Shown here: positions 5,755-45,010 of the stretch, one piece after another
Layout of the letters: each line of letters starts with the position of its first letter
How positions within the stretch are numbered: position 1 is the stretch's first letter
The notes under the pieces: model-generated
The model's input: the letters and a program-made list of their open reading frames with translations, nothing else
The model's database searches: none
Told to the model about the DNA's origin: nothing
Assembly: GCA_037925075.1 (NCBI GenBank)
Contig: JAXSNR010000001.1
Location: 96,001 to 160,000 of the forward strand
From: Aquificaceae bacterium
Lineage (GTDB): Bacteria; Aquificota; Aquificia; Aquificales; Aquificaceae
Length of the DNA stretch: 64,000 nt
Direction of reading: 5' to 3'
Translations under genes and position numbers: made by a program

Positions 5755-5827
5755 GGCCCGGTAGCTCAGTTGGTAGAGCACCCGGCTGAAAACCGGGGTG
5801 TCGGCGGTTCGACCCCGCCCTGGGCCA
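5755..5827 (+). tRNA. tRNA-Phe(GAA), CCA not encoded
   Basis: Acceptor GGCCCGG/CTGGGCC-A, D arm TAGCTCAGTTGGTAGAGC, anticodon CCCGG-CTGAAAA-CCGGG, T arm GGCGGTTCGACCCCGCC; followed by CTT. Confidence 0.97.
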
Positions 5828-9870: not shown

Positions 9871-12800
9871 ATGGGAGACCTCAATCGTAGGGATCTTTTA
9901 AAGCTTGGAGCTATGAGCTTGGCGTCCCTTTCAAGTCCTGCCTTTTCCGCCATAAGGGTTTTTGAACCCGTGGTGAAGGTGGAAAACCCTCTTGCCTACT
10001 ATCCAAACAGGGATTGGGAGAGGTTTTACAGGGATATATACCGCTCGGAGTCTTCCTTTGTATTTCTGTGTGCCCCCAACGACACACATAACTGCTTACT
10101 TACCGCTCATGTAAAAAACGGCGTTATAACAAGGATAGAACCCACTTACAAGTTTGGAGAGGCGACGGACATATACGGACTTAAGGTATCCCACAGATGG
10201 GACCCAAGGTGTTGCAATAAAGGCATAGCCCTTATGAGGAGGTTTTATGGAGACAGAAGGGTGAAAGGTCCTATGGTTAGGAGGGGCTTTTACGATTGGT
10301 ATAAGGCGGGTTTTCCAAGGGATCCTATAACTGGGAAACCTCCAGAAAAGTACTTCCAGAGAGGGAAGGACAAATTCATAAAGGTTACATGGGATGAAGT
10401 GGCAGACATAATAGCAAAAACTCTGATAAACATAGCGACTACCTATAGCGGTGAAGAGGGCAGAAAAAGACTTGAAGCACAAGGTCATTATCCCAAGCCC
10501 ATGCTCGATGCTATGGAGGGAGCCGGTACAAGGGTTCTCAAGTTTAGGGGTTCTATGCCCTTCCTTGCGGTGGTAAGGTATACCTCTGCATACAGGATGG
10601 CAAACATGGTGGCACTTCTTGACAGTCATATAAGGGGAGTTGGACCGGATAAGGCACTTGGTGGAAGGGGTTGGGACAACTATTCCTTTCATACGGACCT
10701 TGCACCTGGCCATCCCATGGTTTCTGGTCAGCAAAACGTGGAGTTTGACCTTTGTATGTTTGAGCACTCAAAACTGCTTATACTCTGGGGCATGAACCCC
10801 TTCACCACAAAGATGCCCGATTGCCACTGGCTTACGGAAGCAAGGATAAAGGGGTCAAAGGTGATAGTAATATCCAACGATTACTCACCCACAGCAAGGT
10901 CTGCGGATGAGCTTATTGTGGTAAGGACAGGAACAGACACAGCCTTAGCCCTGTCTATAGCCTATGTGATAATGAAGGAAAAGCTCTATCAAGAAAGGTA
11001 TGTAAAGAGCTTTACAGATATGCCCTTGCTTGTAAGAATGGACAATGGAAAGGTTCTAAGGGCAGGGGACATAATACCCAACTACAAACCCAAGCAACTT
11101 AAAAAGGCTGTAGTCTTTAAACCCGGTGAGCCACTTCCACCCTTCTTCAAACAGGACAAGCAGTATATACCAGAGCCGATAAGAAATAACGACATGGAAG
11201 ATTTTGTAGTATGGGACACAAAGACAAATTCTCCAAAGGTTATAACAAGGGATGATGTAGGTGAAGACTTTTTCAAGCTCGGCATAGACCCAGCCCTTAC
11301 GGGAAGTTATAAAGTGAAAACGGTTGATGGCAAGGAGGTTGAAGTAAAGCCCCTTTTCCAAGTTTACCTTGAGTTCTTTGAACAGAACTACACACCCAAA
11401 CAAGCTGAGATAATAACTGGCGTCCCAGCGAAAAAAATAGAGTCCCTTGCAAAGGAGATAGCAAGACATCCAAGAAATATGAAACTGGCGCAAGGCATGG
11501 GCGTGAACCAGTACCAGCATGCGGACCTCAAGGACAGAGCCATGTACATGATATGTGCCCTCACAGATAACATAGGGCACCCAACAGGAAACATAGGCTC
11601 TTACGCTGGTAATTTTAGGCTTGCCCTCTTTAATGGAGCACCTCAATACTTTGCAGAAGACCCCTTCAACATAGAGCTTGATCCTAACAAGCCTGCAAAG
11701 GTGAAGTTCTACTGGAAGCCAGAGTCCGCCCACTACTACTCTTACGATGACCGTCCTCAGTATATGGGAGACCACACCATAACTGGCAAATCACACATGC
11801 CCACACCTACAAAGTTTATTTGGTTTGTAGACGCCAACTCCACCCTTGGAAATGCCAAGTGGAAGTACAACATCATTATGAACACACTTCCAAAGATAGA
11901 GTGCATAGTTACCAACGAATGGTGGTGGTCGCTTACCTGTGAATATTCAGACATTGTGCTGGGTGTGGACGCTTGGAACGAGAACAAGTACTGGGACATA
12001 GCAGGCTCCGTAACCAACCCCTTTGTGTACGTGTGGCCCAAAACTGGACACAGAAGGTTCTTTGATACAAAAAACGATGCAGAGACCTTTGCCCTTGTTT
12101 CTAACAGGCTAACAGAGCTAACGGGAGACGAAAGGTTCAGAAACTATTGGAGGTTTGTGATAGAAGGTAAGCAGGATGTGGTTTATGTCCAAAGAGTTAT
12201 AAATGCCTCTGCAAATCTTAGAGGTTATAAGATTGAAGAGATAGCCAAAAAGGCCCATGAGGGCATACCATCCCTCATAATGACAAGAAGCTATCCCAAG
12301 TATGTGGGCGAAGACCAGACAAAGGATAGTATGCCATGGTATACAAAAAGTGGAAGGCTTGAGTTTTACAGGGAAGAGCGGGAGTTTATGGATGCGGGTG
12401 AAAACCTACCTGTTTACAGAGAACCTATAGACTCAACCCACCATGAGCCAAACGTGATAGTGGCAAAGCCCCACCCACTCTTAAGGCCAAAGAAGCCAGA
12501 AGATTATGGAATCAGCAGTAAGGATGCCCTTCTCAACACAGAATGGAGGCAAGCAAGGAATGTGCTTATAGAGCCTGAAAAGCTACCGGGTACAAAGCAT
12601 CCCCTTATGGTAACCATTGGGGCATCCCACATAATTCACACACCAAAATACAGGCACGCAGCCCATACCACAACAGGGGATACGGATGTGACCACATTAC
12701 TCTTCGGTCCCTTTGGAAACATATACAGGCACGACAAAAGAATGCCCTTCATATCCGAGGCATACATAGACATAAACCCCAAAGACCTTCAAAAGATGGG

Positions 12801-13335
12801 CATACAGGACGGCGATTACGTCTATGTGGATGCGGACCCTCAGGATAGACCCTTTAAAGGCTGGCAGAAGAGAAAGGAGGATTATGAGGTAGGTAGGCTA
12901 CTCCTGAGGGCAAGGGCATCTAACAACACACCACCCGGCTGTGCCAAGATATGGTTTAACATGTATGGCTCCTCTCACGGAACTGTAAGAGGAACAAAGG
13001 AAAACCCGAATGGATTAGCCAAGAACCCCCACACCCACTATCAATCCCTGTATAGAAAGGGAAGCCACCAGAGTGTGGTAAGAACATGGTTAAAGCCCAC
13101 TTATCAAACGGATACACTGATAAGGAAAGAGCTTATGGGGCAGGTTATAGGTAAGGGCTTTGCACCAGATGTGCACTGCACCATAGGAGCACCAAGAGAA
13201 GCCTTTGGCAAGATAACAAAAGCGGAGGATGGCGGAATAGGTGGTAAGGGTCTTTGGAGGCCTGTAAAGCTTGGCTTTAGACCCACAACCGCCAACGAAA
13301 GTCTTAGGAAATATCTGAAAGGAAAGTTTGTTTAA
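9871..13335 (+). CDS. narG: DMSO-reductase family type II molybdoenzyme alpha subunit (periplasmic NarG / NxrA-like)
   Basis: Tat signal NRRDLLK; FS0 motif CAPNDTHNC...PRCC; YSFHTDLAPG; ~1150 aa; Nitrospira/anammox-NxrA-like features. Confidence 0.85.
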   Translation: MGDLNRRDLLKLGAMSLASLSSPAFSAIRVFEPVVKVENPLAYYPNRDWERFYRDIYRSESSFVFLCAPNDTHNCLLTAHVKNGVITRIEPTYKFGEATDIYGLKVSHRWDPRCCNKGIALMRRFYGDRRVKGPMVRRGFYDWYKAGFPRDPITGKPPEKYFQRGKDKFIKVTWDEVADIIAKTLINIATTYSGEEGRKRLEAQGHYPKPMLDAMEGAGTRVLKFRGSMPFLAVVRYTSAYRMANMVALLDSHIRGVGPDKALGGRGWDNYSFHTDLAPGHPMVSGQQNVEFDLCMFEHSKLLILWGMNPFTTKMPDCHWLTEARIKGSKVIVISNDYSPTARSADELIVVRTGTDTALALSIAYVIMKEKLYQERYVKSFTDMPLLVRMDNGKVLRAGDIIPNYKPKQLKKAVVFKPGEPLPPFFKQDKQYIPEPIRNNDMEDFVVWDTKTNSPKVITRDDVGEDFFKLGIDPALTGSYKVKTVDGKEVEVKPLFQVYLEFFEQNYTPKQAEIITGVPAKKIESLAKEIARHPRNMKLAQGMGVNQYQHADLKDRAMYMICALTDNIGHPTGNIGSYAGNFRLALFNGAPQYFAEDPFNIELDPNKPAKVKFYWKPESAHYYSYDDRPQYMGDHTITGKSHMPTPTKFIWFVDANSTLGNAKWKYNIIMNTLPKIECIVTNEWWWSLTCEYSDIVLGVDAWNENKYWDIAGSVTNPFVYVWPKTGHRRFFDTKNDAETFALVSNRLTELTGDERFRNYWRFVIEGKQDVVYVQRVINASANLRGYKIEEIAKKAHEGIPSLIMTRSYPKYVGEDQTKDSMPWYTKSGRLEFYREEREFMDAGENLPVYREPIDSTHHEPNVIVAKPHPLLRPKKPEDYGISSKDALLNTEWRQARNVLIEPEKLPGTKHPLMVTIGASHIIHTPKYRHAAHTTTGDTDVTTLLFGPFGNIYRHDKRMPFISEAYIDINPKDLQKMGIQDGDYVYVDADPQDRPFKGWQKRKEDYEVGRLLLRARASNNTPPGCAKIWFNMYGSSHGTVRGTKENPNGLAKNPHTHYQSLYRKGSHQSVVRTWLKPTYQTDTLIRKELMGQVIGKGFAPDVHCTIGAPREAFGKITKAEDGGIGGKGLWRPVKLGFRPTTANESLRKYLKGKFV

Positions 13336-13347
13336 AGGAGGTGAGCC

Positions 13348-14457
13348 ATGGCTAAGGCTTACAATTGGCAGTTGGGTAGGGAAGTAAACTATCCATACGA
13401 ACCCAAAAGACCAAAACGCCAGTTTGCTGTAGTTATGGACCTTAACAAGTGCATAGCCTGTCAGACATGCACAGTAGCCTGCAAAACCACATGGACGCCA
13501 GGACGGGGTCAAGAGTACATACTTTGGAACAACGTAGAAACTAAACCTTGGGGTTTTTATCCTCTTGGTTGGGATATAAGGCTACTGGAACTCTTGGATG
13601 GAAATAAGAAAACCGTCTTTGATGCTCCAGAGGGAGAAAGGGTATTGGGTTGGATGCCAGAGGATATGGACTGGATGTATCCAAATGTGGGAGAAGATGA
13701 GGTAAATGAGCCTGTTGATGTGGGTACTGTACTTGAAAACCTTCCCCATCCCATATGGATGTTCTATCTACCAAGAATATGCAATCACTGTACCTACCCT
13801 GCATGCCTTGCCGCCTGCCCAAGACAGGCAATATACAAAAGGGAAGAGGATGGCATAGTGCTTATAGACCCAGAAAGGTGTGAAGGCTATCAGGAGTGTG
13901 TAAGGGCTTGTCCTTACAAGAAGACCATGTTCAACTTTGTTGCAAGGATATCCCAAAAGTGCATAGGTTGTTTTCCAAGGGTGGAAGAGGGGCTTCAGCC
14001 CCAATGTGTTATTACCTGCATAGGGAAGATAAGGCTTATGGGCTTTATAAACCCACCGGAGAAGGCAAGGCAAGATAACCCAATAGACTTCCTTGTACAT
14101 ATAAAAAAGGTTGCACTTCCTCTTTATCCTCAAACAGGGCTTGAGCCAAATGTTTACTACATACCACCAATAAACGTGCCCCTTAGCTTTCTAAAGCAGA
14201 TGTTTGGTCCAGGTGTAGAGCATGCGGTAAAGACCTACACGGCTATGAGGGAAGGCAAAGAGCCAGAGCTACAGGCACTCTTGCACCTTTTTGGTTCAAC
14301 ACCAAGAATTCCACATACATTTGCAGTAGGTAGGAACGAGGTCATAGCGTATGATGAAGCAGGGAAAGAAATAGTTAGAGTGCCTCTTGTTGAGCCTATT
14401 CAATTCAGGCCTCACAAGGATGAAAGGTTAGATGTGGTAAGACAGGACATACCTTAA
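13348..14457 (+). CDS. narH: Fe-S beta subunit (NarH/NxrB-like)
   Basis: DLNKCIACQTCTVACK, CNHCTYPACLAACP, CEGYQECVRACPY, KCIGCFPR. Confidence 0.88.
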   Translation: MAKAYNWQLGREVNYPYEPKRPKRQFAVVMDLNKCIACQTCTVACKTTWTPGRGQEYILWNNVETKPWGFYPLGWDIRLLELLDGNKKTVFDAPEGERVLGWMPEDMDWMYPNVGEDEVNEPVDVGTVLENLPHPIWMFYLPRICNHCTYPACLAACPRQAIYKREEDGIVLIDPERCEGYQECVRACPYKKTMFNFVARISQKCIGCFPRVEEGLQPQCVITCIGKIRLMGFINPPEKARQDNPIDFLVHIKKVALPLYPQTGLEPNVYYIPPINVPLSFLKQMFGPGVEHAVKTYTAMREGKEPELQALLHLFGSTPRIPHTFAVGRNEVIAYDEAGKEIVRVPLVEPIQFRPHKDERLDVVRQDIP

Positions 14458-14468
14458 GGAGGTGAGCC

Positions 14469-15305
14469 ATGAGGTATGCGGGAGTTTTAATCTTGGGACT
14501 TATGCTTTCAGGTGTTGTTTTTTCCCAAGAGTTAGTATGCAAGAGGGTAAAAAGCTTACCACTGGACCCCTTTGATAAGGCGTGGGCAGATGTCAAGCCT
14601 GTGGATGTTCCCCTCAGCGGTCAGACGGTGACAACCCCGATGCAACTCAAGCCCTCAGTGACAAGCATTGCCGTAAAATGCCTTAATGATGGAAAGAACA
14701 TAGCTTTCCATTTTATTTGGCCCGATAAAACCGAAGATAGGTTTCACTTAGTAAGCAAATTCTCGGATGCGGTAGCAGTTCAGATTCCCTATAAGCCATC
14801 CGCAGATGTTCCAGTAACTATGGGAGAAAAAGGTCAGAGAGTTCTCATACTACATTGGAGTGCCTTCCGACAAGAAAACATAGATAAGGGCTACTCAGAT
14901 ACCGCCAAGATATACCCAAATTACGCCTACGACTGGTACCCACATACAGACTCACCTTATAAGTACCCTGAAAACTGGGCTAATCAGTATGCTTTAAATT
15001 ACATAGGGGGTGAGAAGGTTTTCAGAAAGAACACCTTTAACACACCAGTGAGGGAAGTGGTTGCAGAGGGCTATGGCTCTTCCACATGGAAGGATATACA
15101 GGGAGCAGAAGGAAAGGGCGTATACAAAGATGGAAAATGGCATGTGGTTATAAAGAGGGCTTTTGTGGAAGAAAGCACTTCAAACCCTGAATGGGGACCT
15201 GGAAAGGAAACCTTTGCAAGCTTTGCGGTATGGGATGGAAGCAACGGAGAAGTGGGTGCGAGGAAGTCCTTGAGCTATTCATGGATAAAGCTAAAGGTGG
15301 AGTAA
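14469..15305 (+). CDS. heme-b gamma subunit (EbdC/DOMON-like, NxrC-like)
   Basis: Sec signal, FSDAVAVQ..VTMG, FAVWDGSNGEVGARKS. Confidence 0.85.
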   Translation: MRYAGVLILGLMLSGVVFSQELVCKRVKSLPLDPFDKAWADVKPVDVPLSGQTVTTPMQLKPSVTSIAVKCLNDGKNIAFHFIWPDKTEDRFHLVSKFSDAVAVQIPYKPSADVPVTMGEKGQRVLILHWSAFRQENIDKGYSDTAKIYPNYAYDWYPHTDSPYKYPENWANQYALNYIGGEKVFRKNTFNTPVREVVAEGYGSSTWKDIQGAEGKGVYKDGKWHVVIKRAFVEESTSNPEWGPGKETFASFAVWDGSNGEVGARKSLSYSWIKLKVE

Positions 15306-15306
15306 G

Positions 15307-15996
15307 ATGGAGCTTTATAAAGCTTTCCTTTATAGATTCTTATCGCTGGCTTTTGACTATCCGAGTGAGGAAAACCTCAAGACTCTAAAGGAGGGTCTTG
15401 AGGACCTCTCCCTATCTCTTAAAAACCTTGGTGTTGATTTTGACATAGAAGTGCTAAAAACATGCTTGCAAGATTACGAAAGTGAAGAAAGGCTTTTAGA
15501 CCTTCAGTGTGAGTGGAGCTACCTCTTTGCCACATCTCAGAAGGCACCAAACTGGGAAACCGCTTACGAGCTTGAAAAGGCAGGAAGGAAGGCATACGAG
15601 CTTGCAGATATAGAAGGTTTTTACAGAGCCTTTGGTCTTGAGGTAAGACAAGGATATGAACCGGATGGGTTAATTCCGCAGATAGAATTTTTGAGCCTTC
15701 TGCTCTTAAAAAAGGTCCACGCTGAACAAGTGGAGAAGATGGAAATAGCCAGTAAAGCCTACGAGGATTTCTTCCGAGAGCATCTTGGAAGGTGGTACAG
15801 GCTTTTCTGCCAACTTGTTGAAGAAGAGACTCAGGAGGAATACTACAGGCTTATGTCTAAGCTAATGCGTTCTTTCCTTGACAGAGAAAGACAGGAAATA
15901 AAGGGCATACTGGACATCACAGAGTATAAAAAGGAAATGCTTGAAGGCTCCACATGGGAGTGCGGTATCAATCAAAAAGCTCCACCGCTCTCCTGA
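15307..15996 (+). CDS. TorD/DmsD-family molybdoenzyme maturation chaperone
   Basis: YRFLSLAFDYP, LADIEGFYRAFG, EPD..., FFREHLGRW. Confidence 0.85.
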   Translation: MELYKAFLYRFLSLAFDYPSEENLKTLKEGLEDLSLSLKNLGVDFDIEVLKTCLQDYESEERLLDLQCEWSYLFATSQKAPNWETAYELEKAGRKAYELADIEGFYRAFGLEVRQGYEPDGLIPQIEFLSLLLLKKVHAEQVEKMEIASKAYEDFFREHLGRWYRLFCQLVEEETQEEYYRLMSKLMRSFLDRERQEIKGILDITEYKKEMLEGSTWECGINQKAPPLS

Positions 15997-17344: not shown

Positions 17345-18198
17345 CTTTGCCCTCCTTGTGGTACGTTTATTATTGGCGTCATCTTGGTATCATAGGGTAA
17401 AAGTATTATGGTGTTGTTTTGGCTTCTGGCGTATTCCTGAATGTTTTCTACAAACTTCCACATAAGGTATTCTCTCGTAAGAGACCCAGCTATTATCCTG
17501 TTTGCCTCAGCTATTCCTTGAGCTTCTACCTTTTTTCTCTCCGCCTCAAGCTTTTCCTTTTCCAAAAGAAACTGCATCCTTTGAGCCTCTTCGTAGGCCC
17601 TACGCTTTTCTTCAATGGCTTTTACCACACTATCCGGTAGCCTTATATCTCTTATAAGCACATCCTCAAGGACAAGGTACCTCTTTGTAAGTTGTCCCTG
17701 CACCTCCCTTTTTATCCTTTCCTGCAATTTTTGCCTCTCTTGATATACTACGGAGCTTTCCATTTCCGCTATGGCATCTCTAACCGCCGTTCTAACTATT
17801 TGCTTTATTATCTTCTCCTCGTAGTCAGGTCCATACTCTCTTATTAATTCTGGTGCCTTGTTGGCATCCACCCTATAAAGAACCGCCACATCCATACTTA
17901 CGGGCAAGCCATCTTTTGAAAGACTGCTTATGGGGTTTTGCCTCTCTCTGGTAAACTCCACAGCCTTAGTTCTTATCTCAACCTTTTCCACAGTTTGTAG
18001 AAAGGGAATTCTAAAGTGTAGCCCCTCTCTCAAAGGTGCTGGGTCAATCTTACCTAAAGTTCTTTTTACTCCTACAAAACCTGATTGAACTATCACTAGG
18101 GGATTGCCCGCAAGGGCAAGAAGCAAAAGGACTATTAAAAAAACCACAAAGTAGCTTATAGACCTAAAGCCTTCAAAAGTGGGGTTTTTAATCTTCAC
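17341..18198 (-). CDS. SPFH/prohibitin (band 7) family membrane protein
   Basis: N-terminal TM, GLHFRIPF, SKDGL, DVLIRDIRLP, coiled coil; GTG start with GAGGAGG SD. Confidence 0.9.
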   Translation of the reverse strand: MKIKNPTFEGFRSISYFVVFLIVLLLLALAGNPLVIVQSGFVGVKRTLGKIDPAPLREGLHFRIPFLQTVEKVEIRTKAVEFTRERQNPISSLSKDGLPVSMDVAVLYRVDANKAPELIREYGPDYEEKIIKQIVRTAVRDAIAEMESSVVYQERQKLQERIKREVQGQLTKRYLVLEDVLIRDIRLPDSVVKAIEEKRRAYEEAQRMQFLLEKEKLEAERKKVEAQGIAEANRIIAGSLTREYLMWKFVENIQEYARSQNNTIILLPYDTKMTPIINVPQGGQR

Positions 18199-18235: not shown

Positions 18236-19333
18236 ATGATTGCCCAGGACATTCTAAAAGAGGCTCTTAAGAAAAACAAGCTAAAAAGCGAAGCCTACGG
18301 AAAGCTTGAGTACCTGAGGTTTACCGACGACTTTAAAGAGGTTCCTCGTGGCACCGTTCTTTTCAAAGACAACATCATATGGGGCTATCCACACATAGGC
18401 AGGATCTTTCAGCTTTCTACAGGCATTCCTGAGCAGTTTGAAGCTCCCTTTTGGGTTGAGGAAAAGGTAGACGGATACAATGTGAGAGTGTTTATGCATG
18501 AGGGAGAAATTTACGCCCTCACAAGGGGTGGTTATGTATGTGCCTTTACCACAGACAGGGTTCTTGATTTTATAGACCCAAAATTCTTTGAGGACAACCC
18601 TGATCTTGTGCTGTGTATGGAGGTGGCAGGACCGGAAAATCCCTATGTGGAGGAAAGCCCACCCTATGTGAAGGAAGATGTCAAGTTTTTTCTTTTTGAC
18701 ATAATGCAAAAAAACAGTCAAGGCTTTTTACCCTACAGAGAAAAGTTAAAGCTTATAGAGAAGTATAACCTTCCAAGTGTAGAAGGGTACGGACTGTACA
18801 CTCCAGACAAGATAGAAGACTTAAAGGCTCTCCTCAAAAGACTAAACGACGAAAGAAAAGAGGGTGTAGTGCTAAAAGAGGACTCTAAAAGGGACAAAAG
18901 GGTCAAGTACATCACAAGCTATGCAAACCTTAACGACATTAGGATAACCTCTCTAAACATGCTTGGGCTTCCCGCAGACTACTACACCAACAGATTATTA
19001 AGGCTTGCACTCTTTATAGAAGAGGAGGGGTTAGAAAAGAGCGAAGAGCTATACAGGGAATTGGGAGAGGCTTTTCTTAGTGGGCTTTTTTCCGCATGCA
19101 AGATGGCAAAAGAAGAGGGCAAGGTTCGTAGGGTCTTCCGGTGCAGGTTCAGAAGAAGGGACAATGTCCTCATCTTCTTGGAGCAGATGAAACACGCCTC
19201 TGTTCATATACAGGTAAATCAGCTATCTCTAAGGGAAGAGGGTGGGCTTTGGCTTTTGGAGTTTGAAAAGGTTTTCCTTAATATGACGGGGCTTCTTGGA
19301 CATCTTCTAAGGGGTGGGTCCCTTATAGATTAG
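18236..19333 (+). CDS. ATP-dependent RNA ligase, Pab1020/Rnl3 family (archaeal type)
   Basis: GYPHIGRI, motif [39 protein letters not shown] at 18236 chosen (TATAAT 9 nt upstream). Confidence 0.92.
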
Positions 19334-19911
19334 GCTCTAAGTGTATAGCTTTCAAGTATGACTCTAAAACTCCTTGGGTCTATGAGCTTTATTCCCACCT
19401 TGTCCGCCCAGTTTCTGAGACCCTCGTCCGCGGACACAAGAATGCCGTCAAGCTCGTAGGCTAAAAGCAGAACATCAAGGTCTTCTTTACTGTCTATTAT
19501 GCCTGTCCTGAGAGCCTCACGGTATTTTTCTCTGAGCTTGTTTATAAGTTTTCCCACATCCTCTTGGGTAAGCCTTCCAGCCTCTTTTGTATGCTCTTCC
19601 GCAATCCGTAGACCCTTGTTTATCCTATAACGCACTTCTTCTATAAACTCATACAGAAATTCCGCAGGCACCATAAGGTTAAACCTTCTCGGAGAGCGGA
19701 CCCTTACCGCGAGCTCAAACCTTGGCTTGAGATTTCCAAGCTCCACCATTTTGTTAAACTCTTCATAAACGGAGGTGGGCATGTAAAACTGTGCCCTGCT
19801 ATGAGAAGCCAAAGTTATGAAGTTTTCTATGGCTCCAAGCTGATCCTTTTCAAACTGACTGTAAATGTCAGGGTTTGTAAATACGCTTGTATCAAGCACA
19901 AAAACTTCCAT
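19330..19911 (-). CDS. protein-only (RNA-free) RNase P, HARP/Aq880 homolog (PIN_5)
   Basis: [48 protein letters not shown]: recognisably the Aquifex Aq880 sequence, catalytic Asp residues present. Confidence 0.95.
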
Positions 19912-19912
19912 T

Positions 19913-20044
19913 TTACCTCAATAGGTTAATTATAAGGTATGGGCTATCCCTGTTTATCAAAAGCACAAACCTAATTTCCACGATGTCCACTTTGGGCACA
20001 TCCACTTCCAGAGTTTTATAAGCCTCGTAAGGGAGCACAGCCAT
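19913..20044 (-). pseudogene. 43-codon remnant or small ORF
   Basis: [43 protein letters not shown] with TATAAT 7 nt upstream; ends resemble Aquificae DUF1640-like coiled-coil proteins lacking the middle (from memory). Confidence 0.35.
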
Positions 20045-20048
20045 AGTT

Positions 20049-20876
20049 CTAATTATAATTTCCTTTGGTAAGGTAATCCAACACAGAGCCTTTTACCACC
20101 TCGTAAGGCACTTCATAGCCCGTCCATATTCTGAAGCTTTCCATACCCTGATAGAGTAGCATATCAAGACCATCTTGATAGGAGCATCCCTTTTCCTTTG
20201 CAAACTTCAAAAGTGGAGTTTCTCTGTAGATGATGTCCATGACCTTATGCTCCGGCTTAAGCATGCGGTAGTCAAATATAGGTGGGTCTTCATCCCTTAG
20301 ACCAAGGGAAGTGGTATTAACAATTAGCTCCACATCTTCCAGCACATCCTCTGGCCTTTTCACATGCAGGCAGTTAAACTCCTCACAAAGCCTTTTGGCC
20401 TTTTCCTCAGTCCTGTTCCACAGAAAAACCTCCGCGCCTTCAACTTTTAAAGCATACAGTACAGCCCTTGCGGAGCCTCCCGCACCAAGCACCAAGATCT
20501 TAAGACCCTTAAGGTCAGGAGTTAGCCCTCTTACCGCCTTTAAAAAACCAACCCAGTCCGTGTTGTAGGCATAAACTCCCTCGTCGCTAAACTTCAAGGT
20601 GTTGGCAGAGCCTATGGCTTGGGCGTGTCTGTCTTTGAAGTCCGCAAGTTCAAGGGCTTTTTCCTTGTGGGGAAGTGTTATGTTAGCACCTTTTACTCCA
20701 AGAGCTTTTAGACCTCTAAAGGCAGACTCAAACTCTTCAGGTTTTACCTCAAAGGGAACATAAACCGCGTTTAGAGAAAAATGTTCAAAGGATTTGTTTT
20801 GAAAAACCGGAGAAAGGGAATGTTTTACAGGATAACCTAATATGCAGTAAACTTGGGTCTTTCCGTCAATGGTCAT
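20049..20876 (-). CDS. aroE: shikimate dehydrogenase
   Basis: HSLSP, GANITLPHK, NTD, GAGGSA, MLLYQG. Confidence 0.96.
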   Translation of the reverse strand: MTIDGKTQVYCILGYPVKHSLSPVFQNKSFEHFSLNAVYVPFEVKPEEFESAFRGLKALGVKGANITLPHKEKALELADFKDRHAQAIGSANTLKFSDEGVYAYNTDWVGFLKAVRGLTPDLKGLKILVLGAGGSARAVLYALKVEGAEVFLWNRTEEKAKRLCEEFNCLHVKRPEDVLEDVELIVNTTSLGLRDEDPPIFDYRMLKPEHKVMDIIYRETPLLKFAKEKGCSYQDGLDMLLYQGMESFRIWTGYEVPYEVVKGSVLDYLTKGNYN

Positions 20877-21124
20877 CCAATCTGATACTTGGGCTGAAGT
20901 ATCTCTACCTTTTTGACCCAGCTAAGATTGCCTTTGATTGCCATATCCACCACATTCTTGACGCTTACGTCCGCTATTATACAATCGGTGCAACCACCCT
21001 CAAACTGAAGGTAAACCTCGCCTTCTCTTATATCCACCACCTTTAGGTTTCCGTGGTGTTCTTTAAGGGCTGGTCTGATCCTTTCCAGTACTTCTTCTAC
21101 TTCTTTTAGTTCCTTGTCAGTCAT
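20873..21124 (-). CDS. NifU-C/Nfu domain Fe-S carrier
   Basis: IRPAL..H.G and GGCTDC (CxxC). Confidence 0.85.
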   Translation of the reverse strand: MTDKELKEVEEVLERIRPALKEHHGNLKVVDIREGEVYLQFEGGCTDCIIADVSVKNVVDMAIKGNLSWVKKVEILQPKYQIG

Positions 21125-21363
21125 GGCTTATCCTCCAGTTGTCTGTATAAATCTTGTATCTCCTGCCAGAGATTTCCCTGAGCTTCGTCATCCAAGTCCA
21201 TCAGCCTGCAAAAGCCCTTAAGAGTTAGCTTATCCGCAACCACATCCTCTATGTCCTCCTCCAAAAGGATACGATAGCCATACCTCATGAGCGTTTCTTT
21301 TACGTGCGGGAAGTTTCTGAGAAGCTCCATAAGGTTTGTGTCCAAGGTGATCCTTTCCTTCAT
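21121..21363 (-). CDS. small protein, DUF1858-like
   Basis: ITLDTNLMELLRNFP..L.RYG...TL pattern. Confidence 0.6.
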   Translation of the reverse strand: MKERITLDTNLMELLRNFPHVKETLMRYGYRILLEEDIEDVVADKLTLKGFCRLMDLDDEAQGNLWQEIQDLYRQLEDKP

Positions 21364-21611
21364 GTTTCTTTCACCTTTCTAACAAAAAGGTGATACTCAC
21401 CCTCTTCCTCGTAAAGTCCCAAAAACTCCTGACCCGTAGCTTTGCACCATGCGGGTATATCCTCCACCACCCCCGGGTCGTCCGCCACAAGCTCAAGCAC
21501 TTGACCCACTTGCATGGTCTTTATAACCTTTGCAGTTTCAGCCACGGGCACAGGGCAAAAAGTCCCCACCACATCATGAACCACGTCTGGTTTTATGTTT
21601 TCAATTTCCAT
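21360..21611 (-). CDS. tusA: TusA/SirA-family sulfur carrier
   Basis: D..G.FCPVP, DDPG...DIPAW. Confidence 0.9.
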   Translation of the reverse strand: MEIENIKPDVVHDVVGTFCPVPVAETAKVIKTMQVGQVLELVADDPGVVEDIPAWCKATGQEFLGLYEEEGEYHLFVRKVKET

Positions 21612-22647
21612 ATTTTACTCCCTGTCTATTGTATATTTTAAGAGATTCTACCAGTTCCTCATCTGGTGGCTCTCCCCAAAGGGTGTGCTCCACAGAGCCA
21701 AGGCTGACGACCACCTCACAGGGCTGATTTTTTGAATACCTTGCGACAAGGTCAGCGACAAGCTTTTTCTCCTCTTCCCTTAGGCCACCCTTTATAAGGG
21801 CAAAGGTGCCCTTTAGGTCCTTTCTGTACGCATAGTCATACCTTTTCCTAAAGCCTTGAAGAAACCTGACCTCCCCTTCGTTCCTCGCCACTATGAGCTT
21901 GGCTCCAGAGGGAAGCCTAAAATGTCTTCCAACGGAAAAAAGTATCAGGTCTTCTCTTGTTAGTACCCCTTCTATCGCAAAGGCTTCCCTAAACCTGTAG
22001 GCATAGTTTTCATCCGTAAGATAGCAACATCCTCCTGCGGGCTGTTCGTAGTCAATGCCATACTTCTCCGCTAGGGCTATCTGTCTTCTTCTCCCTCTAC
22101 CTCTTATATCAAGGAGTTTTTCCCTGTACACCCATCCAAGTTTTTCGGGTATGGTCTCTGGAAGCACTTTTGCGGAAAGGGGTCTTAGAATGTAACCTTC
22201 AAGCCCAGATTCCTTTTCTATGAGCATAAGCCTTTCGTATGTTTGGCTCATGGGTCTTTGGCCAAGCACTTCACCGGTGATCACAAAATGGAAGCCTTCC
22301 TTCTCCATTATCTCCTTTGCCTTTTTGAGCATAAATATCCTACAATCCACACAAGGATTTACGTTTTTGCCATATCCATGCTTTGGATTTAGAATTATGT
22401 CAAAGTACTCCTGCGATATATCCACTATCTCTATAGGAACTTGAAGCTGGGCTGCTGCCCTAAGAGCGGGATTGACATATTGCGACCCGTCTTCTCTCCT
22501 CAGTCCAAGGCGCCTTTTGTGTTCGGTGATACAAAAGCCCGTGTAAAAGTGCAAAGCTTTTATCTCAACGCCTTGGTCCTGAAGGAGGCGGACCGCTAAG
22601 GAGCTATCCAGCCCTCCAGAAAAAAGAGCAACAGCCCTTACCTTCAT
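21601..22647 (-). CDS. PP-loop ATP pyrophosphatase, ThiI/MnmA-like tRNA thiolase (no THUMP domain; C-terminal NFACT-R/DUF814-like)
   Basis: SGGLDS, NPCVDCR, TGEVLGQRPMSQ, PAGGCC, GRHFRL. Confidence 0.8.
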   Translation of the reverse strand: MKVRAVALFSGGLDSSLAVRLLQDQGVEIKALHFYTGFCITEHKRRLGLRREDGSQYVNPALRAAAQLQVPIEIVDISQEYFDIILNPKHGYGKNVNPCVDCRIFMLKKAKEIMEKEGFHFVITGEVLGQRPMSQTYERLMLIEKESGLEGYILRPLSAKVLPETIPEKLGWVYREKLLDIRGRGRRRQIALAEKYGIDYEQPAGGCCYLTDENYAYRFREAFAIEGVLTREDLILFSVGRHFRLPSGAKLIVARNEGEVRFLQGFRKRYDYAYRKDLKGTFALIKGGLREEEKKLVADLVARYSKNQPCEVVVSLGSVEHTLWGEPPDEELVESLKIYNRQGVKYGN

Positions 22648-23105
22648 GTGGAAAGAAACTCAAACTCCCTGCTTTCTTCTTCTTCCTCTTCGTAGCAGTC
22701 GGGTATACGCATAGCCTCTTCTACCCTTCCCTGCTTGAGAAGGTAATCCTTTATGGCCACATGCAAGGTTTCCAGTCCAAGGTTTGTGCAATGAATCTTC
22801 TGTGGAGGAAGTCCGCCAAGCTCATCAAATATATCCTTGTAGGTAAGGTTCAAAGCGTAGCTTATAGGCTTGCCCTTTATCATCTCTGTAAGCTGTGAAG
22901 AAACCGCAATGGCGGAGCCACAGCCAAAGGTTTTAAACCTTACATCCTCTATTATATCCTTTTCGGGGTTTATCTTTAGAGTAAATAGCATGGCGTCGCC
23001 ACAGGCTGGATTGCCACACTGCCCAATGGCGTTGGCATCCTCAAGCACACCCACATTTCGTGGGTTCAAAAAGTGGTCAAGCACCTTCTCACTGTATTCA
23101 AACAT
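22644..23105 (-). CDS. iscU: Fe-S scaffold IscU
   Basis: DHFLNPRNVG, GNPACGD, FGCGSAIA, KIHC. Confidence 0.95.
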   Translation of the reverse strand: MFEYSEKVLDHFLNPRNVGVLEDANAIGQCGNPACGDAMLFTLKINPEKDIIEDVRFKTFGCGSAIAVSSQLTEMIKGKPISYALNLTYKDIFDELGGLPPQKIHCTNLGLETLHVAIKDYLLKQGRVEEAMRIPDCYEEEEEESREFEFLST

Positions 23106-43167: not shown

Positions 43168-43473
43168 ATGGAAGAGAAGAAGGTAAATCCTATAGCGGTT
43201 CTGTGTTATGTGGGGATCCTTGTTTTGATCCCTCTTTTAGTGGAAAAGGAAGACGAATTTGTAAGGTTTCATGTAAGACAGGGATTAGTCCTGTTCATTT
43301 GTGAGGTGGCTACCATGCTAATTGGTTGGTTTCCTATAATCGGTTGGTTAATAAGCTTTATAGGTTTCTTCATTTGGATAATCCTTAGCCTTATTGGGAT
43401 TATAAATGTACTAACTGGCAAGACCAAACCATTGCCTTTAATTGGAGGGTACGCCCAAAAGTTTAAAATTTAA
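43168..43473 (+). CDS. DUF4870-like small membrane protein
   Basis: [19 protein letters not shown]; start could be TTG at 43162. Confidence 0.8.
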
Positions 43474-43477
43474 ATTC

Positions 43478-45010
43478 ATGCGTGAGGTAATCTTTGAAAA
43501 GGGCATAAGGCACACCGCCCACGGGCTAAACTTCTATATGACCTACTTTGACGATGTGGCAAAGGTTCTACCAAGAGAAGCCTACTGCTTTATTGTGGGT
43601 GGGTGGGTAAGGGATAGGATTTTGGGTGAGCCTGTGGGCTATCACATAGATGTGGACCTTTTGGTGACCTGCGACCCAAGAGAGGTGGCAAAAAGGCTTG
43701 CGGAAAGGATAGGGGGCTCTTACTTTGAGTTTGAAAAGAAGGGGCTTTTTATAAAAAGACCCACAATAGCAACAGTGGTCCTAAGGCTTGGTCCTTACAA
43801 ATACCGCTTTGACTTTGCCCAGATAAAGGGAAGAGACTTAGAAAAGGCTTTGGTGGAAGACCTACTTTCAAGGGATTTTACCGCCAACGCCATGGCGGTA
43901 AGCATAGATGACGTGCTTAGCATAGGTGCAAAGCAAACCTTGATATACGACCCAGCACACGGAGTGGAGGACTTGGAGCAGGGGCTTTTGAGACCCGTAT
44001 CTTTGAAAAACCTTGAGGAAGACCCTGTGAGAATACTCAGGGGCTTTCGCCTTGCGGTGGAAAAAAGGCTTGAGCTTACAGAAGACTTTTATGAGTTTGT
44101 AAGGGAAAAGGGGAGCCTTATAAGGAAGGCTCCACCTGAAAGGATTACCCTTGAGCTTTTTAAGGTCTTGAGACAGCCAGAAGGCTATAAGGTTCTAAAA
44201 AAGTTATACCAGTATGGGCTTTTACAGGTGCTTTTCCCAGACACCGCCCGATGGAAGGAGATAAAAGACCAGGGAGAGCATCACATCTACCCTTTAGAGG
44301 AGCATGTTTTTAAGGTCTTGGAAGCTCTTGAGAAGGTAATCCAAGAAAGGGACAGATACCTACCTGCGGAACTTCTGGAAAACTTTGGTAAGACGGAAGT
44401 GCACGGTGAATTCTCCGATGTGGAGCTTTTGAAACTTTCCGCACTCTTTCACGATATAGCCAAACCTCACACCTTTGAGATAAGGGAAAACAAGATAACC
44501 TTTTACAACCACGATAAGCTCGGTGCTGAACTGGTAAGAGGTTATGGGAAGGCTTACAAGTGGGGTGAGACCGCCACGGAGTTTATAGCAAAGCTTGTAA
44601 GGGAACACCTAAGACCCTTTTATCTTAGAGAGTCCCTCTTCAAAGGACAGCTTACAGACAGGGGTAGGGCAAACTTTTGGAGGGAATGCGGAGATATAGC
44701 ACCTTATCTTTTCTTGCATGCCATGGCGGATGCCATAGGTAGCGGTGATGAGGAGGTGGAGATAAAAAGACTTCTTGAGACCATCCATGATCTGATAAGC
44801 TTCAAAAGGGAAAAACTTTCAAAGGTGCCTATGAAGGCTTTACTTGATGGGAAGGAGATAATGCAAGCTCTTGGCTTAAATCAGGGTCCTATTGTGGGAA
44901 GGATAAAAAAAGCATTAGAAGAAGCCCAGCTTGAAGGCAAGGTAAAAACCAAGGAAGAAGCCCTTGAGTTTATCAAATCTTACTACGAAAGCCTGAAAGA
45001 ACAAGCATAG
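43478..45010 (+). CDS. class II tRNA nucleotidyltransferase, CC-adding enzyme type, with HD domain
   Basis: VGGWVRD, DVD, RDFTANA, DPVRILR, HDIAKP; closely resembles the ~510-aa Aquifex CC-adding enzyme (from memory). Confidence 0.88.

Follow-up and report, generated by a model that had tools for sequence, protein, structure and literature searches.

The two genes at 18236-19911 are an ordinary Aquificaceae copy, and a typical member, of the known HARP-Rnl3 pair, in which a protein-only RNase P (HARP) stands beside an RNA ligase (Rnl3). Our data from Aquificota suggest that the ligase depends on HARP but HARP does not need the ligase, and we consider some present-day functional coupling of the two proteins probable. 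The pairing, including its convergent layout in Aquificaceae, is already known: Seshadri and Gopalan (2025, PMC12153264) describe the link between HARP and the ligase and propose cut-and-ligate ideas. The linkage and the cut-and-ligate idea, which a sequence-only reading of this DNA had put forward, were both already in print, and the locus itself adds nothing to the families and the convergent Aquificaceae pairing published there. What is at stake is the role of HARP in the many organisms that also have an RNA-based RNase P, and what the bacterial Rnl3 ligates; our literature searches found no paper on a substrate for a bacterial Rnl3. Coordinates below refer to the window, i.e. the whole stretch of 64,000 nucleotides that was analysed.

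The gene pair and its surroundings

The Rnl3 (Pab1020-type) ATP-dependent RNA ligase is encoded on the plus strand at 18236-19333 (365 aa, intact), from the ATG at 18236 to the TAG at 19331-19333. HARP is encoded on the minus strand at 19330-19911 (193 aa, intact), from the ATG at 19911 to the TAA at 19332-19330. The genes are convergent and their stop codons overlap in the four bases TTAG (19330-19333), just as the sequence-only reading had described. A GTG at 18179, which the ORF finder used for a longer call, is unlikely to be the ligase start, since the starts of close relatives line up with the Met at 18236, as does residue 4 of the 3qwu chain.

The identities given to the two proteins in that reading are borne out by the TIGR01209, PF08745, TIGR03875 and PDB matches. 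The ligase scores 413.5 bits against TIGR01209 (cut-off 136.9), carries PF09414 at residues 71-226 and the PF18330 C-terminal region at 241-361, and has 3qwu as its best PDB match (E 7e-152), with PpaRnl at 1e-82 and Pab1020 at 2e-80. Both the motif I lysine, Lys77 (EEKVDGYN), and the motif V lysine, Lys224, are there and are invariant in 30 of 30 aligned sequences. K77 falls on the lysine that the PpaRnl mutant chain has changed to alanine; K224 aligns to the PpaRnl lysine numbered K238, with the numbering taken from the tag offset. HARP matches PF08745 (237.2 bits, cut-off 27) and TIGR03875 (234.7 bits, cut-off 95.3) over its full length. The latter is titled 'RNA ligase partner protein' in NCBIfam, in agreement with the family name given in the earlier reading. 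Its best PDB match is 8ssf, 'RNA-free ribonuclease P' (E 7e-99), gapless over the full length. Asp7, Asp140, Glu143 and Asp162 of HARP correspond to D7, D138, E141 and D160 of Aq880, a 2-residue insertion shifting the numbering, and D144 and D146 are present as well; the Aq880 catalytic mutants are named in the available text of PMC12217051.

The pair lies among housekeeping genes: to its left are those of an SPFH protein and a phosphomannomutase, to its right aroE and an IscU/TusA/NifU/ThiI-like group. The 2 kb bin that holds it has a GC of 0.43, inside the range of the window. A sigma-70-like site (TAAACA-16-TATAAT, 10/12) lies upstream of HARP at 19929-19956 on the minus strand and is a candidate by consensus match alone; the region has 4 such sites against 2.9 +/- 1.8 in shuffles. 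The promoter and terminator scans of the region are both at shuffle level, and no terminator-like site was found by the scan at the ligase/HARP junction. An Rfam search of the window for a candidate substrate RNA beside the pair returned the tRNA-Phe at 5755-5827 alone. The intron-containing and permuted-tmRNA calls of ARAGORN appeared under relaxed settings only and were discarded as noise. No conserved third gene was found in the part of the neighbour clusters scanned (45 proteins), where neighbours recur within lineages only. Relatives of either gene were found in 0 of 106 and 0 of 21 viral stretches.

Several other features of the window were observed. The minus-strand genes at 20873-23105, upstream of aroE and HARP, encode IscU, ThiI-like/NFACT-R, TusA, DUF1858 and NifU-like proteins and are likely a sulfur-relay or tRNA-thiolation set; of these, the ThiI-like gene went undetected in G056, G043 and G044, which are ligase-negative. 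A four-gene molybdopterin oxidoreductase operon with catalytic, Fe-S, EB_dh-type and chaperone subunits occupies 9871-15996 (+). The PolyA_pol and HD-domain nucleotidyltransferase encoded at 43442-45007 (+) is probably one of the split CC/A-adding enzymes of Aquificaceae, judging from the available text of PMC12217051.

RNase P and RNA repair in the host genome

Named homologues place the host in Aquificaceae. HARP is very likely the sole RNase P of the host, because neither rnpB nor rnpA was found in its genome (G000, 1.6 Mb, 99.95% complete). The absence of both had been expected from the sequence, and indeed RF00010 and PF00825 have no match in this genome, while RF00010 matched 11 and PF00825 10 of 14 control genomes. 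RF00010 is also without a match in all 90 genomes of the host's family and is positive in G090, a genome of a sister family; these rnpB results are those of the RF00010 model alone, not of separate models for type B or archaeal RNase P RNA. No rRNA motifs were found in the host genome, so its rRNA operons appear to be unassembled, which is a caveat for any RNA absence there. ARAGORN at its default threshold gave no tmRNA in this genome. The host also encodes RtcB and a LigT/ThpR protein elsewhere in the genome, and RtcA was not found in it. The presence of RtcB means that other RNA repair exists in this cell.

Distribution and gene order

The ligase is essentially never found without HARP in Aquificota. 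Among 178 genomes, 94 encode HARP, 77 the ligase and 76 both, and the families f2, f4 and f5 have neither gene (0/80). The single genome with a ligase and no HARP is G080 (1/77), which is 54% complete. HARP without the ligase occurs in 18 of the 94 genomes, namely in g5 (8), g6 (2), g23 (7) and G056, and these include two single-contig, 100% complete genomes. TIGR01209 was not found in the five HARP-without-ligase genomes checked, and rnpB was also not found in four of this kind that were checked. The family-level search over 118 genomes at least 90% complete gave the same one-way pattern, and the asymmetry reported in PMC12153264 is as in Aquificota here. We infer from these counts that the dependence is one-way, from the ligase to HARP. 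HARP persists in 18 genomes without the ligase, so tRNA 5' maturation does not require the ligase. The g6 genomes retain iscU...aroE-HARP in that order, with genes other than the ligase after HARP, a sign that the ligase has been lost; the HARP of g5 resembles a named Hydrogenobaculum protein.

The convergent pairing is more than chance. The genes are adjacent in 52 of the 76 Aquificota genomes with both, and convergent in 52 of these 52, in a count that used 79 of 99 HARP rows and 81 of 87 ligase rows, with partnerless genomes and small fragments left out. By genus, the adjacent cases are 21/22 in g1, 19/19 in g3, 4/7 in g4, 1/10 in g9 and 7/7 in g10-g12, with 0/8 in g2, 0/2 in g7 and 0/1 in g8. 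The genes lie apart in 24 of 76 genomes, with both on one contig in only 3 of the 24, so that some of these cases may be assembly breaks. The 3' ends overlap in 82 of 100 convergent loci, by exactly 4 bases in 39 of them (loci not de-duplicated). Outside Aquificaceae, 22 of 25 proteobacterial loci (from the best 80 of 186 relatives) carry the convergent pair, and one of the three misses sits at a contig end. The adjacency is thus conserved in relatives, as the sequence-only reading had supposed. A YbeY endoribonuclease gene was seen near a ligase with no adjacent HARP at L153:3996-4451 (-) and also at L048, L147, L158 and L183.

PMC12153264 finds HARP-Rnl3 adjacency in 127 of 164 bacteria and 163 of 501 archaea. 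The earlier statement that the two genes co-occur mostly in archaea therefore holds by counts, but bacteria have the higher share of adjacent pairs, and our pair has its nearest relatives among them. The available part of Table S1 of that paper has convergent genes in Hydrogenivirga caldilitoris, Hydrogenobacter sp. T-8, H. thermophilus, Thermocrinis albus and T. minervae, among the matches listed, separated genes in Aquifex aeolicus VF5 and a divergent layout in 148 rows. The paper gives 10 colinear cases, one of them bacterial, and a fusion is unmentioned.

Congruent gene trees and transfer of the pair

The trees of HARP and the ligase are congruent, as had been predicted. The tree set has 63 pairs, i.e. 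57 adjacent ones (from 102, de-duplicated at 85% ligase identity), one fusion and 5 separated ones. The FastTree trees have 33 of 60 splits in common, against a mean of 0.2 and a maximum of 3 in 500 shuffles. All 19 strong HARP splits recur in the ligase tree, as do 22 of 24 strong ligase splits in the HARP tree, with no strongly supported conflict and a patristic r of 0.95 over the 63 pairs. IQ-TREE, run on sets thinned to 38 and 46 rows (25 rows left out to save run time), recovered the same deep groups in both genes. These are Aquificaceae with Gammaproteobacteria (100/99 for the ligase, 97/96 for HARP), a same-strand clade with the fusion (98/93 and 100/98), a pair whose cluster has WOR-3 names, and a Thermococcus group. 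These are midpoint-rooted gene trees with thin archaeal sampling, and the pairs were chosen for adjacency; because 58 of the 63 rows had been selected as adjacent or fused, linkage and vertical descent would by themselves produce some of the congruence. The five separated pairs fall inside the Aquificaceae groups of both trees.

The nearest relatives of the pair are gammaproteobacterial, not archaeal. Since Gammaproteobacteria are not the sister phylum of Aquificota, and the pair has a patchy distribution within Aquificota, the simplest reading is that the pair moved between phyla as a unit, from a donor that we leave unnamed. The trees thus support the co-transfer part of the co-transferred module that had been proposed for this locus, but the module is not an obligate one, HARP being found alone as described above. 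The long HARP branches of g5 and g6 lie outside the Aquificaceae-Gammaproteobacteria group, and may mean a separate origin for them.

Same-strand genes, a candidate fusion and HARP divergence

The two genes are also found in a same-strand arrangement. In 12 of the best 80 metagenome loci (from 296 relatives), HARP is directly followed by the ligase on the same strand, the genes abutting or overlapping in separate frames (L112-L118, L127, L136, L138, L159 and L165). Six of the 12 are distinct at the 85% cut, and two of the clusters carry Thermodesulfobacteriota or Dadabacteria names. Other RNA repair genes were noticed at some of these loci: RtcA lies downstream on the opposite strand in three related loci, L112:2241-3317 (-), L113:5163-6239 (-) and L116:1381-1875 (-), and a LigT/ThpR gene at L118:4662-5273 (+) overlaps the ligase stop.

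One protein, P0163 (580 aa), has PF08745 (38-213), PF09414 (293-445) and PF18330 (461-576) in one chain. It is a singleton on one 4.1 kb contig (4115 bases), and both trees place it as the sister of the same-strand clade, with long branches. The stretch from residue 214 to the ligase core at 248 contains no Met, whereas the six relatives checked start their ligase with ATG, which mildly favours a true fusion; P0163 may also be an assembly or calling error. Its structure prediction without an alignment has a mean pLDDT of 33.7 and was set aside. Searches for a second fusion gave two matches among 1694 candidates, P0163 itself and a HARP-HARP repeat, and none in 430 stretches, in the 7 plasmid records covering 80% or in the best 80 loci (from 296 relatives). 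A further weak search, which missed P0163 itself, returned none, and the Atlas returned ligase clusters only, with scores below 0.9.

Other unusual HARP proteins were observed. P0288 (388 aa) has two HARP domains in tandem, with two cluster members of similar length (P0288, P0289 and P0290), and is either a real duplication or an assembly artefact. In P0294 (389 aa, 3 members) HARP is fused to a CBS domain. P0207, P0211, P0218 and P0232 are divergent PF08745 proteins with long low-complexity tails and ~32-35% identity to the HARP of the locus.

HARP may diverge faster in genomes that lack the ligase, but the indication is a crude one, a lead rather than a result. We divided the HARP distance to the host genome by the distance averaged over up to three control proteins in 22 chosen genomes. 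This ratio is 0.34-0.78 in the 14 ligase-positive genomes and 0.64-1.20 in the 8 ligase-negative ones, which represent four lineages. The two groups separate fully with the phosphomannomutase control, and overlap with the FtsA control (one genome) and the ThiI-like control (three g23 genomes). No conserved HARP column is changed in more than two of the four ligase-negative lineages, and the changes are mostly lineage-specific.

A working model and its alternatives

In the model that we prefer, HARP would be the RNase P of the cell and would mature tRNA 5' ends by itself, a role shown for close homologues and suggested here by the catalytic residues and the absence of rnpB and rnpA matches. Rnl3 would be an accessory enzyme acting downstream of HARP. 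The cuts made by HARP would leave a 5'-phosphate and a 3'-OH, and Rnl3 would adenylate the 5'-phosphate and seal ends that are held by a stem. The putative products would be circles of small structured RNAs, or repaired HARP-made breaks. Both genes would have been passed between phyla as a unit and kept together since. The coupling as such draws on the congruent trees, the one-way dependence, three layouts (convergent, divergent and same-strand), one fusion and the HARP rate hint. The specific direction, with HARP cutting and Rnl3 sealing or circularising the ends, is a more tentative proposal that we put at slightly short of an even chance.

RNA-based RNase P makes the same ends as HARP, so that the chemistry alone leaves the choice of HARP as partner unexplained. 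The available text of PMC12217051 reports that HARP cleaves pre-tRNA to give 5'-P and 3'-OH ends (mass spectrometry) and also cuts 3' trailers, and that close homologues form oligomers up to a dodecamer and cut pre-tRNA at +1. Archaeal Rnl3 is a homodimer with ATP-dependent RNA circularisation or adenylation activity (PMC11040149, available text), and it adenylates 5'-P ends and circularises stem-closed RNA (available text of PMC11040149 and PMC9014305). The match in end chemistry that the sequence-only reading had drawn therefore stands, as far as these texts go. Against HARP cutting and Rnl3 sealing, four bacterial HARPs failed to cut pre-tRNA in vitro (PMC12153264), and the Rnl3 knockout of T. 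kodakarensis points to C/D-box RNAs and has no growth defect (PMC9014305, available text).

The fusion and the same-strand clade suggest a single cut-and-seal machine. We speculate that the original job of HARP and Rnl3 as one such machine was making or reopening an undescribed class of covalently closed or adenylated bacterial RNAs, and that tRNA 5' maturation became a second job after the loss of rnpB. We regard this wider proposal as possible, though somewhat unlikely.

An alternative hypothesis could be that the two genes have no present-day coupling and simply arrived together, with overlapping 3' ends that are hard to separate and with both genes favoured in hot or salty habitats. The frequent overlap of convergent pairs, the 24 genomes with the genes apart (8 of 8 in g2 among them) and the lack of the ligase in several lineages would all fit, and the authors of PMC12153264 leave room for hitch-hiking. 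Yet the genes are found side by side in three orientations and once fused, genomes in which they lie apart still retain both, the five separated pairs checked sit within the Aquificaceae groups of the trees, and the ligase is essentially never alone. We therefore consider a lack of coupling rather unlikely.

The polarity could also be the reverse, with Rnl3 acting first on tRNAs or tRNA-like RNAs, which it would adenylate or circularise under stress, and HARP undoing this by its +1 cut. The ligase would then be harmful without HARP, and the one-way dependence would be explained directly. A 5'-adenylation version is proposed in PMC12153264, and the available texts report that Rnl3 enzymes adenylate strongly and ligate weakly (PMC11040149) and that whole circular tRNAs with a CCA junction exist (PMC12558985). 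Those circles, however, are reported in haloarchaea only in the available text; of the three species named, two are ligase-negative and the third is unlisted in the available part of Table S1 of PMC12153264. Moreover, the T. kodakarensis table in the available text of PMC9014305 has no ligase-dependent whole-tRNA circle. This order of events seems quite unlikely to us.

A third proposal, also made in PMC12153264, is that HARP trims C/D-box sRNA precursors and Rnl3 circularises them. It draws on the T. kodakarensis Rnl3 knockout, which removes most C/D-box circles (PMC9014305, available text), and it may hold for archaea. It cannot explain the Aquificaceae locus, for which we rate it as very improbable: the linkage is tightest in bacteria, the search for fibrillarin in the host gave nothing above the cut-off (a single match over 46 positions has 20.9 bits, with 27 required), and no Nop domain was found in its genome. 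All four archaeal controls matched in both of these searches, the scope of which did not extend to L7Ae and the RNAs. Finally, the notion raised in PMC12153264 that HARP, a PIN nuclease, is a toxin with the ligase as its antitoxin, which the PIN fold and the adjacency would favour, is hardly credible, since the ligase-free genomes (18 of 94, two of them complete) refute it for Aquificota unless another ligase substitutes, and an archaeal ligase knockout grows normally (PMC9014305, available text).

Among these readings we keep that of HARP cutting and Rnl3 sealing. The Aquificaceae offer a clean test bed for the roles of HARP and Rnl3, because they appear to be without C/D-box machinery and have natural ligase-plus and ligase-minus relatives. 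The gene-tree congruence, the same-strand clade, the fusion and the rate hint are side results that need confirmation. None of the four was found in the literature searched, with subscription journals and bioRxiv supplements outside the search, and the association is of an age to have given a TIGRFAM its name; the congruence, the clade and the candidate fusion would strengthen the published argument, which is based on co-occurrence.

Comparison with known systems

The locus has the same two families and the same convergent layout as the pair of PMC12153264, and nothing differs at the locus. Taken as two genes no more than 5 kb apart, usually on opposite strands, a linked HARP-Rnl3 pair is what this locus has. 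The approaches differ in that the published work used a marker-gene (SRP GTPase) tree, whereas our trees are those of the two genes themselves. Compared by sequence, the HARP of the locus has catalytic acidic residues like those of HARP/Aq880 (PF08745, TIGR03875; PDB 8ssf, 8kda and 7f3e), with no notable difference. The ligase likewise has the same domains and the same motif I and V lysines as Pab1020, MthRnl, PpaRnl and the Aquifex protein 3qwu (TIGR01209). The contrast lies in the substrates: the known archaeal Rnl3 substrates are C/D-box RNAs, while the host of this locus is without fibrillarin above the cut-off or Nop.
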